Shown: positions 40,050 to 41,278 of the stretch, piece after piece | Layout: every line of letters starts with the position of its first letter | Position numbering within the stretch: position 1 is the stretch's first letter | Assembly: GCF_024700885.2 (NCBI RefSeq) | Contig: NZ_CP117016.1 | DNA: 64,000 nt | Strand: one strand, 5' to 3' | DNA from: Escherichia coli | GTDB taxonomy: Bacteria > Pseudomonadota > Gammaproteobacteria > Enterobacterales > Enterobacteriaceae | Program-made: the position numbers and the translations under genes | Notes under the pieces: model-generated | Told to the model about the DNA's origin: nothing | Seen by the model: only the letters and a program-made list of their open reading frames with translations | Database searches by the model: none

Positions 40050-41278
40050 AGTAACCTCACTACACACAGATATAAAAGCACTGCAATTCTGGCTATTAAT
40101 AGCAAAAATAGCAGTCAAATCAATATGAGGTAAAAATTTTTGTTGATTTAATGGTTAAATAATAACCACAGTGTGTTTTGCTGCTGAAGAAAGACAAAAT
40201 GAATCTGTGTGTCCCCTCCTTCCCTTCAGAGCACATCCACTATTCAAATTTTACACAACCACGTACGAACAAAAAGCATCATCCCGGGTATTGCAGATAC
40301 CGGTTTCCTGCCGGGATGAATCATAAACAGAACACCGGGAATAACGCCTTCAGGAATCCCCCCCTCCTGAAGAAGAATAAAATAAAGAAGACTACAGTTC
40401 CTGCACTGTATGCTGAGTACAATATTCTATGGACAGGATGACATATTTATAAATAACAAAAACCATTTAATACTGATACATCAATAAAATACTTCCTCCC
40501 TGCTGACGCAGATAAAATGCACCATTTTTTCTTCAAATACTTCTGTATAATCGCCAGCCAATGATGAGAATGGATTAAAATAACACTTCTTCGACAAACA
40601 CAAAAACAGCCTTCATTTTACATCATCATCCAGTTTCAGTTAACCCCGGACGAGCAACAGCGTTTCAGTACAGGAATTAAAAGCCAGCTTTTGCTCAGTA
40701 AAAACACACTCAACTAATAATATCTCAGCAGATATTATCCTGACCAGGACACCTCACATTACTGAATTCTCTTCCGACAGTATCACTGCACAAATAAAAA
40801 AGAACGGGATAAATATTCAGACCGGAAGAATGGTGTCACAAAAGCATTTAATCATTACGCATGACCAGGAAGGGAAACACTTAACCACATGGTATCAACA
40901 GATATCATTACGTGTGCACCCTTATAAAAAACACACAGAAGAAGTAAGATAATTATAAATGTAAATTTAATATCTCCCACTGACATCTCCCCCACAATAC
41001 ACTGAAAAATACTCACAGCAGTAAACACAGACACACCTGATAATCATGCAGCCGATAAATATTTTCCCCTTTACGGAGAAATCAGCCTGCTGTTTAACAA
41101 TAACGGCGTATTTTCATGGAAGGAGATCACCCAGTAACGGATAAGTCCTGATCTCCTTCATGTTAATACGCAACAATCCCATCGATTAAAAACAATTTCA
41201 GACAGATATTATCTCCGTGAATCCCCCGCCACCTTTCCGGTGCGCGGGATTTTGTCTTTTTTCACCGGGAATACATGT

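Follow-up and report, generated by a model that had tools for sequence, protein, structure and literature searches.

The 1229-bp stretch that separates a YfjI-family gene from a YeeP/YfjP/YkfA-type GTPase gene in this Escherichia coli sequence is a genuine gene-free, non-coding spacer between divergent genes, ordinary apart from its ends, and its only noteworthy element, of modest interest, is the conserved terminator in the leader of the GTPase gene. We consider it probable that this gap is a spacer of a CP4-44/CP4-57-type integrative island that functions at its two ends only, with an attenuator at the right end and an interior free of constraint. In what follows, the window is the whole 64-kb stretch of DNA that was analysed, and the gap is this part of it:

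40050..41278, unstranded: whole non-coding gap, delimited by gene boundaries, composition and a three-lineage comparison

The gap is bordered on the left by the yfjI gene (CDS 38565-40049, minus strand), whose product matches Pfam DUF3987 (E = 7e-96), and on the right by the GTPase gene (CDS 41279-42151, plus strand), which encodes 290 aa with a match to Pfam MMR_HSR1 (E = 9e-15). PGAP annotation of an identical copy places their ATG start codons at 40049 and 41279, so that the two genes are indeed divergent, as the earlier note on this DNA had described them. The setting is a CP4-44/CP4-57-like E. coli island, with genes for AlpA-family HTH, Hha and inovirus-Gp2-family proteins upstream of the gap and a right arm downstream of it that carries IsrC, Ag43, DUF932, an antirestriction gene, YeeS/T and CbeA/CbtA. 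The AlpA-like HTH gene occupies 37348-37554, a 200-aa protein is encoded at 37641-38243, and zinc-ribbon proteins are among the other products of the island. The gap has 38.3% G+C where the window averages 52.4%, which places it at the 0.9th percentile among stretches of 1229 nt. A and C are enriched on its plus strand (A 36%, T 25.6%, C 23.2%, G 15.1%), and the GC skew of -0.21 lies at the 0.2nd percentile of the window. The longest ORF is an 87-codon TTG frame (40178-40441, plus strand), and among the intervals without an ORF of at least 100 aa the gap ranks second in length in the window. The same note's description of a long AT-rich stretch without a credible ORF thus holds, and its coordinates are exact.

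Three features lie at the right end of the gap.

41186..41212, plus strand: GTPase promoter, assigned by homology to the yfjP/ykfA sites, with -35 TTAAAA (41186-41191), a 15-nt spacer and -10 TATTAT (41207-41212)
41225..41262, plus strand: intrinsic terminator found by a terminator scan, with the hairpin CCCGCCACC-UUUCC-GGUGcGCGGG (41225-41248) and a U-rich tract (41249-41262)
41213..41270, plus strand: possible outer helix, CUCCGUGAA (41213-41221) with UUCACCGGGA (41261-41270), from minimum-free-energy folds

The TTAAAA-15-TATTAT sequence aligns with TTGAAA-15-TATCAT upstream of the K-12 paralogues yfjP and ykfA, and genomic SELEX is reported to have found RpoD holoenzyme bound in vitro at the latter sites (PMC3946193) and RpoS holoenzyme at the yfjP spacer as well (PMC5493296). 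Searches of the literature on yeeP, yfjP, ykfA, yfjI and DUF3987 gave nothing beyond this genomic-SELEX work. A conserved box, TTCAGACAGATATTAT (41197-41212), covers the promoter spacer and the -10 element; it occurs once in the window at up to 3 mismatches and is kept in the leaders of GTPase homologues at 48-60% protein identity. The last ~100 bp of the gap accompany the GTPase gene elsewhere too, in O104:H4 islands and on Klebsiella and Salmonella plasmids. We infer that a sigma-70/sigma-S-type promoter, with the box spanning its spacer and -10, drives the GTPase gene.

The terminator hairpin (dG -15.2 kcal/mol; 5 U in the next 8 nt) begins ~12 nt downstream of the -10; behind it come AUUUUGUCUUUUUU, a Shine-Dalgarno-like GGGA (41267-41270) and the ATG. 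A GC-rich stem-loop with a U-tract immediately behind it is the sequence signature of an intrinsic terminator, and with the promoter assigned by homology, the order of -10, terminator and ATG is the layout of an attenuator. A viral-contig search with a GTPase alignment (29 loci), together with leaders from other copies, yielded 23 distinct leaders, from GTPase homologues that are ~48-100% identical in protein. A hairpin and U-tract are present at the equivalent position in all 23, with many different stem sequences, hairpin energies from -7 to -23 kcal/mol and 4-7 U among the 8 nt that follow (5-7 except in the weakest). In the alignment of class-2 leaders (13 sequences), compensatory double changes are found in 5 of the 10 stem pairs and 96.9% of cells are paired. 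None of 500 shuffles reached the covariation score of this alignment, and pairing falls to 32-50% when the partners are slid by one to three columns. Apart from the hairpin and U-tract, the two leader classes have in common only the box TTCAGAyAGATATyAT and, where transcription is predicted to start, a TGA. A covariance model built from the class-2 leaders did not recover the class-1 leader of the window; we therefore claim no single RNA family for these leaders, only a common architecture and promoter box. Because the order of promoter, terminator and gene recurs down to ~48% protein identity, with compensatory changes in the stem, the GTPase leader looks like an attenuator, and one that is as yet uncharacterised. 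Neither yfjP nor ykfA has a 3'-end entry in K-12 Term-seq tables.

The possible outer helix would enclose the terminator and occlude the Shine-Dalgarno-like GGGA. Its GUGAA/UUCAC pairing corresponds to CUGAA/UUCAG in K-12, a compensatory difference between the two classes, and no double changes were seen within class 2. Sequestration of the Shine-Dalgarno by this helix is doubtful, because with transcription starting at ~41219, 7 nt downstream of the -10, the RNA would lack most of the 5' arm. In the folds of the GTPase leader, the terminator is nested in the possible outer helix, and no competing antiterminator helix appeared.

Transcription from the GTPase promoter would have to cross the leader terminator, so that by default most transcripts should stop after ~35-45 nt. 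Expression of the GTPase gene, and probably of the genes that follow it, would thus stay low unless read-through rises. Termination at the leader hairpin, regulated read-through and use of the promoter in this island are what we infer. The leader terminator is the sole RNA-level feature of the gap and could release a transcript of ~35-45 nt. Two other roles are conceivable for it: it could mainly halt read-through from upstream, or its hairpin could be a 5' stabilising hairpin.

Comparison with the K-12 genes yfjP (CP4-57) and ykfA (CP4-6) makes clear which parts of this arrangement are shared. All three loci have a TTGAAA or TTAAAA -35, a 15-nt spacer, a TATCAT or TATTAT -10, the box in its degenerate form, a GC-rich hairpin with a U-tract, a Shine-Dalgarno and the ATG of a 290-aa MMR_HSR1-type GTPase. 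In contrast, the stems of K-12 yfjP and ykfA (CGGCAGAACC/GGUUCUGCCG and CGGCGGAAUC/GAUUCUACCG) are unrelated to that of the gap, as are the linkers, and the distance from the predicted start to the hairpin is 3-5 nt in the gap leader but ~15 nt in yfjP and ykfA. The K-12 promoter regions also follow a gene (rnlB or perR) and not a 1.2-kb empty gap. The arrangement resembles classical leader attenuators and riboswitch expression platforms in placing an intrinsic terminator between the transcription start and the start codon, but the GTPase leader measures only ~60 nt and lacks a leader peptide, an evident antiterminator helix and a domain of aptamer size.

A further likeness is to Q-type modules such as lambda PR'-tR' and P. 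aeruginosa PalpB-tB with AlpA, in which promoter-proximal terminators are bypassed by Q-type antiterminators (PMC7969949, PMC9371919). Common to both are a conserved element within the promoter spacer and an intrinsic terminator that separates the promoter from the first of a long series of co-directional genes. Unlike these modules, the gap has no clear -10-like pause element in its initial transcribed region: class-2 leaders carry AACAAT or GAACAT after the predicted start, whereas the gap leader, GUGAAUCC, has no match to xAxxxT. The AlpA-family protein of the island was considered as an antiterminator of the P. aeruginosa AlpA type and rejected. This protein of 68 aa matches Phage_AlpA/HTH_17, its sequence matches in the PDB are an AlpA-family phage regulator and TorI, and it is unrelated to the P. 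aeruginosa protein, which is eight-helix and Q21-like; it does not qualify as a Q/AlpA-fold antiterminator.

It is tentatively possible, though we would not expect it, that the promoter box and terminator before YeeP/YfjP/YkfA GTPase genes form an undescribed switch based on regulated attenuation or antitermination. In such a switch, an island- or host-encoded factor acting at the box would let RNA polymerase read through, and the gated right arm would comprise the GTPase, IsrC, Ag43, DUF932, the antirestriction protein, YeeS and CbeA/CbtA. The leader arrangement is conserved before poorly understood island-borne GTPases whose genes are present in most E. coli genomes, often in several copies. 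If read-through is regulated, it would offer a simple control point for cryptic-prophage-like islands, those concerned here carrying Ag43 adhesins, antirestriction genes and CbtA/CbeA toxin-antitoxin pairs.

The left end of the gap contains the putative control region of yfjI.

40055..40058, minus strand: Shine-Dalgarno GAGG, 5 nt ahead of the yfjI start codon and identical in all three aligned lineages
40080..40115, unstranded: imperfect 36-bp palindrome ACTGC...GCTATTAATAGC...GCAGT, from an inverted-repeat search and a blastn self-match; candidate operator
40096..40123, minus strand: candidate sigma-70 yfjI promoter, TTGATT (40123-40118)-16-TATTAA (40101-40096), read from sequence

The core of the palindrome, GCTATTAATAGC, is a perfect 12 bp (40092-40103), and on the minus strand the palindrome folds with z = -3.8. 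The block 40090-40170, which includes positions 40093-40115 of the palindrome, is nearly invariant even in lineage B (see below), where neighbouring sequence is 68-78% identical. The palindrome overlaps the -10 of the candidate yfjI promoter and could serve as an operator. The promoter itself is a weak candidate: each hexamer has 4 of 6 matches, and the promoter scanner did not report it. On this view the left end (40050-40125) would supply yfjI with a ribosome-binding site and with a weak candidate promoter on which a palindrome, possibly an operator, is superimposed. Promoters for both divergent genes had been suggested in the earlier note; the suggestion stands for the right end, which matches the RpoD sites of yfjP and ykfA, and finds at the left end only this putative site.

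Between the two ends, copies of the gap from other genomes show how its sequence has changed. With the full gap as query, matches were found in 4170 of the 5426 complete E. coli genomes, mostly over the last ~90-100 bp only. The gap core (40300-41180) is present in 2258 of these genomes, and 1856 carry at least 80% of the gap. The fetched copies belong to three lineages: A, that of the window (1229 nt); B, the CFT073 type (~1334 nt); and C, found in ETEC4079 and O157:H16 (~1181 nt). The gap core in the other two is ~72-88% identical to the lineage A copy. One recombinant gap copy was found besides the three lineages. A metagenome scan with a 26-nt conserved core pattern returned 90 contigs, all of lineage A, B or C, and no more distant relative of the gap among them. 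An exact-pattern scan of genome contigs with the 19-nt leader core gave chance matches and two mis-binned MAG contigs, and no enterobacterial representative genome. In viral contigs, relatives of YfjI are ~50% identical and all show the K-12 type order, with alpA, yfjI and yfjJ co-directional; no equivalent of the gap is present beside them.

Four features of the interior are referred to below.

40262..40317, unstranded: most conserved interior block, ~90% identical in the three lineages, with runs of invariant alignment columns
40344..41104, unstranded: spacer body evolving at an approximately neutral rate (K 0.10-0.30 versus flanking dS 0.11-0.25) and without a conserved ORF
40881..40908, plus strand: promoter-like site TTAACC-16-TATCAT, which shares a CAGATATCAT core with the GTPase promoter box
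41106..41171, unstranded: 65-nt palindromic dispersed repeat, a hairpin with an imperfect stem of ~24 bp and AACAAT on both flanks

Divergence of the gap between lineages (K = 0.13-0.27; 0.10-0.30 in sub-blocks) is similar to the synonymous divergence of the flanking genes (dS = 0.11-0.25; dN = 0.01-0.06). Within lineage A, pi is 0.0098 in the gap versus 0.0112 at third codon positions of yfjI. Indels of 29, 71 and 73 nt separate the lineages, and within the yfjI-GTPase segment identity profiles are lowest across the gap and show clear recombination breakpoints; the last 101 bp of the gap are better conserved (K = 0.02-0.095). Judged by these rates, the central ~1 kb of the gap drifts neutrally, without constraint. 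The retention of a length of ~1.2 kb in three lineages hints at some constraint on the presence of the gap. Two observations were counted against a view of the interior as neutral filler, namely the A/C excess of the plus strand across the whole 1.2 kb and the block 40262-40317, which is more conserved than its surroundings. The three-lineage alignment of this block contains no compensatory base-pair changes.

The earlier note had also thought of a scar left here by a deleted gene. We consider it unlikely that the interior represents one or more decayed genes that formerly stood between yfjI and the GTPase gene. The length of ~1.2 kb would suit such an origin, and so would the strand-asymmetric composition, the minus strand being rich in T and G as in AT-rich membrane-protein genes. 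The neutral-rate divergence of the gap also agrees with it, and in other islands further genes do separate the GTPase gene from yfjI or from the upstream region; in K-12 CP4-57, for example, yfjJ, abpAB, yfjM and rnlAB lie between its versions of the two genes. Nevertheless, K-12, CP4-57 included, has no DNA similarity to the gap by blastn. Each reading frame of the gap contains 16-30 stop codons, ORFs other than the 87-codon frame that lie wholly inside the gap do not exceed 59 aa, and a 61-aa ORF (41198-41383, minus strand) runs beyond its right edge. Eleven ORFs of 30 aa or more overlap the gap, and not one of them is preserved intact in both lineages B and C, the 61-aa ORF having been compared only up to the end of the alignment. 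A Pfam search with six-frame translations of the gap matched no family, and a tblastn search of proteins from analogous positions (YfjH, YfjJ, AbpA/B, YfjM, RnlA/B, PerR and a 383-aa protein of O104:H4) against the three gap lineages gave nothing below E = 0.17. Homologous islands with an intact gene at this place, which that note had named as what would refute its observation, did not turn up: neither an intact nor a partial gene was found in the listed and fetched E. coli copies, the 90 metagenome contigs or 9 viral contigs, and PGAP annotates no CDS in the gap among the matches listed or fetched, short matches to the 65-nt repeat and the GTPase leader aside. With no conserved ORF, no Pfam match and no tblastn match, the notion of a gene scar is left without positive support.

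A small RNA, also proposed for this region, fares no better in the body of the gap. A cmscan of 38000-43000 against Rfam at E <= 1 returned only IS102/IsrC (42255-42458), which lies outside the gap, and Rfam searches of lineages B and C and of K-12 CP4-57 gave nothing in the gap or the leader. Mean folding z-scores of the gap are only about -0.8 to -0.9, and they are mild outside the repeat element and the leader, with several 100-nt windows at z = -2.2 to -3.8. Promoter-like sites (5 versus 4.1 +/- 1.9 in shuffles) and terminator-like sites are no more frequent in the gap than in shuffled sequence. It seems to us very unlikely that the interior encodes a functional non-coding RNA, whether an sRNA or, on the pattern of the CI RNA region that precedes the phage P4 alpha operon, a long leader or immunity RNA serving yfjI. 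The location upstream of a P4-alpha-like helicase gene and the windows that fold better than shuffles speak for such an RNA, as does a helix predicted by RNAalifold for the yfjI-proximal 211 nt of the minus strand, in which CUUCA pairs with the Shine-Dalgarno region of yfjI; the C-rich, G-poor plus strand would give an unstructured RNA with possible Rho loading. However, only 2 of the 57 predicted pairs show a compensatory change and the RNAalifold covariation term is -1.4 kcal/mol; besides the missing Rfam family and the shuffle-level frequency of promoter- and terminator-like sites, the neutral-rate divergence and the tolerated indels also argue against it. As a widespread but seemingly unconstrained spacer, the gap is of little importance in itself and no longer counts as a candidate for a hidden gene, a structured RNA or an RNA of known family.

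An AT-rich stretch adjoining a DUF3987 helicase-like gene might also be a cis-acting DNA site of the mobile element, that is, a replication origin served by YfjI, on the model of the ori/crr that serve P4 alpha, or a transfer or packaging site. We regard this as highly improbable. One strand carries six copies of the hexamer CAGATA, 170-304 nt apart, where ~0.5 would be expected, but the commonest 6-mer of composition-matched simulated sequences reaches similar counts (mean 5.4, 95th percentile 8), and all lineages share only 2 of the 6 sites. The idea of iterons or an origin drawn from the CAGATA repeats was rejected, since the count is not significant and the sites are mostly not conserved. 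Repeat families in the gap never exceed two copies, and no iteron-type origin resembling P4 ori/crr was seen. One DnaA-box-like site with a mismatch is present and no IHF consensus site; the divergence is neutral, and long hairpins are unlikely given the strong strand skew. The inverted repeat of 27 nt on either side of the gap (40174-40200 and 41249-41275) was likewise judged to be due to chance, because its right arm is the U-tract of the terminator, which is also present in islands without the gap.

We favor a passive interior, in which ~1 kb of AT-rich filler would collect small palindromic repeats, and would probably serve at most to separate the two control regions and to bind H-NS/Hha. 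The gap resembles AT-rich island regions silenced by H-NS/Hha, with 38% G+C in a background of 52%, and the island encodes an Hha-family protein. In K-12 genomic SELEX, 36% of the constitutive-promoter sites in one spacer class overlap H-NS-binding sites (PMC3946193). The gap contains no close match to the H-NS high-affinity motif, its two best sites having 2 mismatches.

The collected repeats are of two kinds. The 65-nt repeat folds with dG -30 kcal/mol (z = -6.2) and is missing from lineage C, where it is covered by the 73-nt indel. It was found at 5277 places in 2720 E. coli genomes, with 1-6 copies per genome, and at 42 plasmid sites. Dispersed copies, a palindromic sequence and presence/absence polymorphism place it among small dispersed palindromic repeats of the MITE/REP-like kind, and its AACAAT flanks may reflect target duplication or have been the substrate for a deletion. 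Lineage B contains an extra 71-nt palindromic insertion between window positions 40854 and 40855, which is a dispersed repeat too, found at up to 50 places per genome. Both repeats fit an insertion-tolerant spacer. Further copies of the 65-nt repeat are found on an IncF plasmid (directly 3' of cdtC), within an ibrAB/PerC island and in phage P-EibC; the phage copy lies upstream of eaaC and is annotated merely as 'stem_loop'.

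The three lineages of the gap between yfjI and the GTPase gene, A (the window), B (CFT073 type) and C (ETEC4079 and O157:H16), differ by insertions and deletions. The following insertion is found in L004, the lineage B copy:

Window 40854/40855: 71 inserted nt, which include a perfect 26-nt palindrome, GATCACGGTTTGGCCAAACCGTGATC

This insertion is a dispersed repeat: 2837 E. coli genomes carry it at a total of 6903 places, with as many as 50 in one genome, and plasmids carry it too. Half-length matches suggest that it may be a MITE that arose from insertion-sequence ends. It is also evident that 29 nucleotides common to lineages B and C are absent from lineage A at window 40736/40737. 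The missing stretch is bounded by CCTGACCAGG and AACAGG, two short sequences that resemble each other, and this arrangement points to a slippage deletion in the lineage of the window. One 56-nucleotide block of the gap (window 40262-40317) shows about 90% identity across all three lineages, whereas the sequence around it shows 70-80%; neither a covarying structure nor a known motif was found in this block.

Nowhere else in the window is there so long an interval free of ORFs of 100 or more amino acids as at 27083-28661 (1579 nt). This interval is close to the left edge of the stretch that has an identical copy in strain SLK172 (L001), and the SLK172 copy contains IS and pseudogene fragments.

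Two features follow the GTPase gene:

42255-42458, + strand: IS102/IsrC sRNA (Rfam, full-length match, 253 bits, E = 3e-49)
42479-45598, + strand: Ag43 gene, with a break near 44770

IsrC likewise lies between the GTPase gene and Ag43 in K-12 CP4-44, and its copy in lineage C is far weaker (68 bits, Rfam). Compared with the intact SLK172 allele, Ag43 in the window has one mismatch and a 1-nucleotide deletion, the latter splitting the gene into two ORFs (42323-44827 and 44845-45597). Either Ag43 in the window is a frameshifted pseudogene or the deletion is a sequencing error.

The GTPase leader can also be found in other contexts. In the island of E. coli O104:H4 2011C-3493 (L002, 4864-11553), the same leader as in the window is placed after a gene for a 383-aa hypothetical protein. 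The GTPase gene there is frameshifted and is followed by dynamin-family, RdcB-family and patatin-like phospholipase genes, with no Ag43 in that place, unlike the window. Island sequences 98-99% identical to that of the window were found in two MAG contigs labeled Collinsella sp. and Lachnospiraceae (L007, 7060-7200, and L008, 1-324). These sequences very probably represent E. coli DNA that was mis-binned. In some viral contigs, the covariance model of the class-2 leaders of GTPase homologs gave weak extra matches (E = 0.001-0.007) directly downstream of the GTPase gene:

L126, 2376-2460: weak match, 3′ of the GTPase gene
L139, 2472-2558: weak match, 3′ of the GTPase gene
L142, 2222-2303: weak match, 3′ of the GTPase gene

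These model matches suggest that a second module of terminator and ribosome-binding site may precede the gene after the GTPase in some viral contigs.
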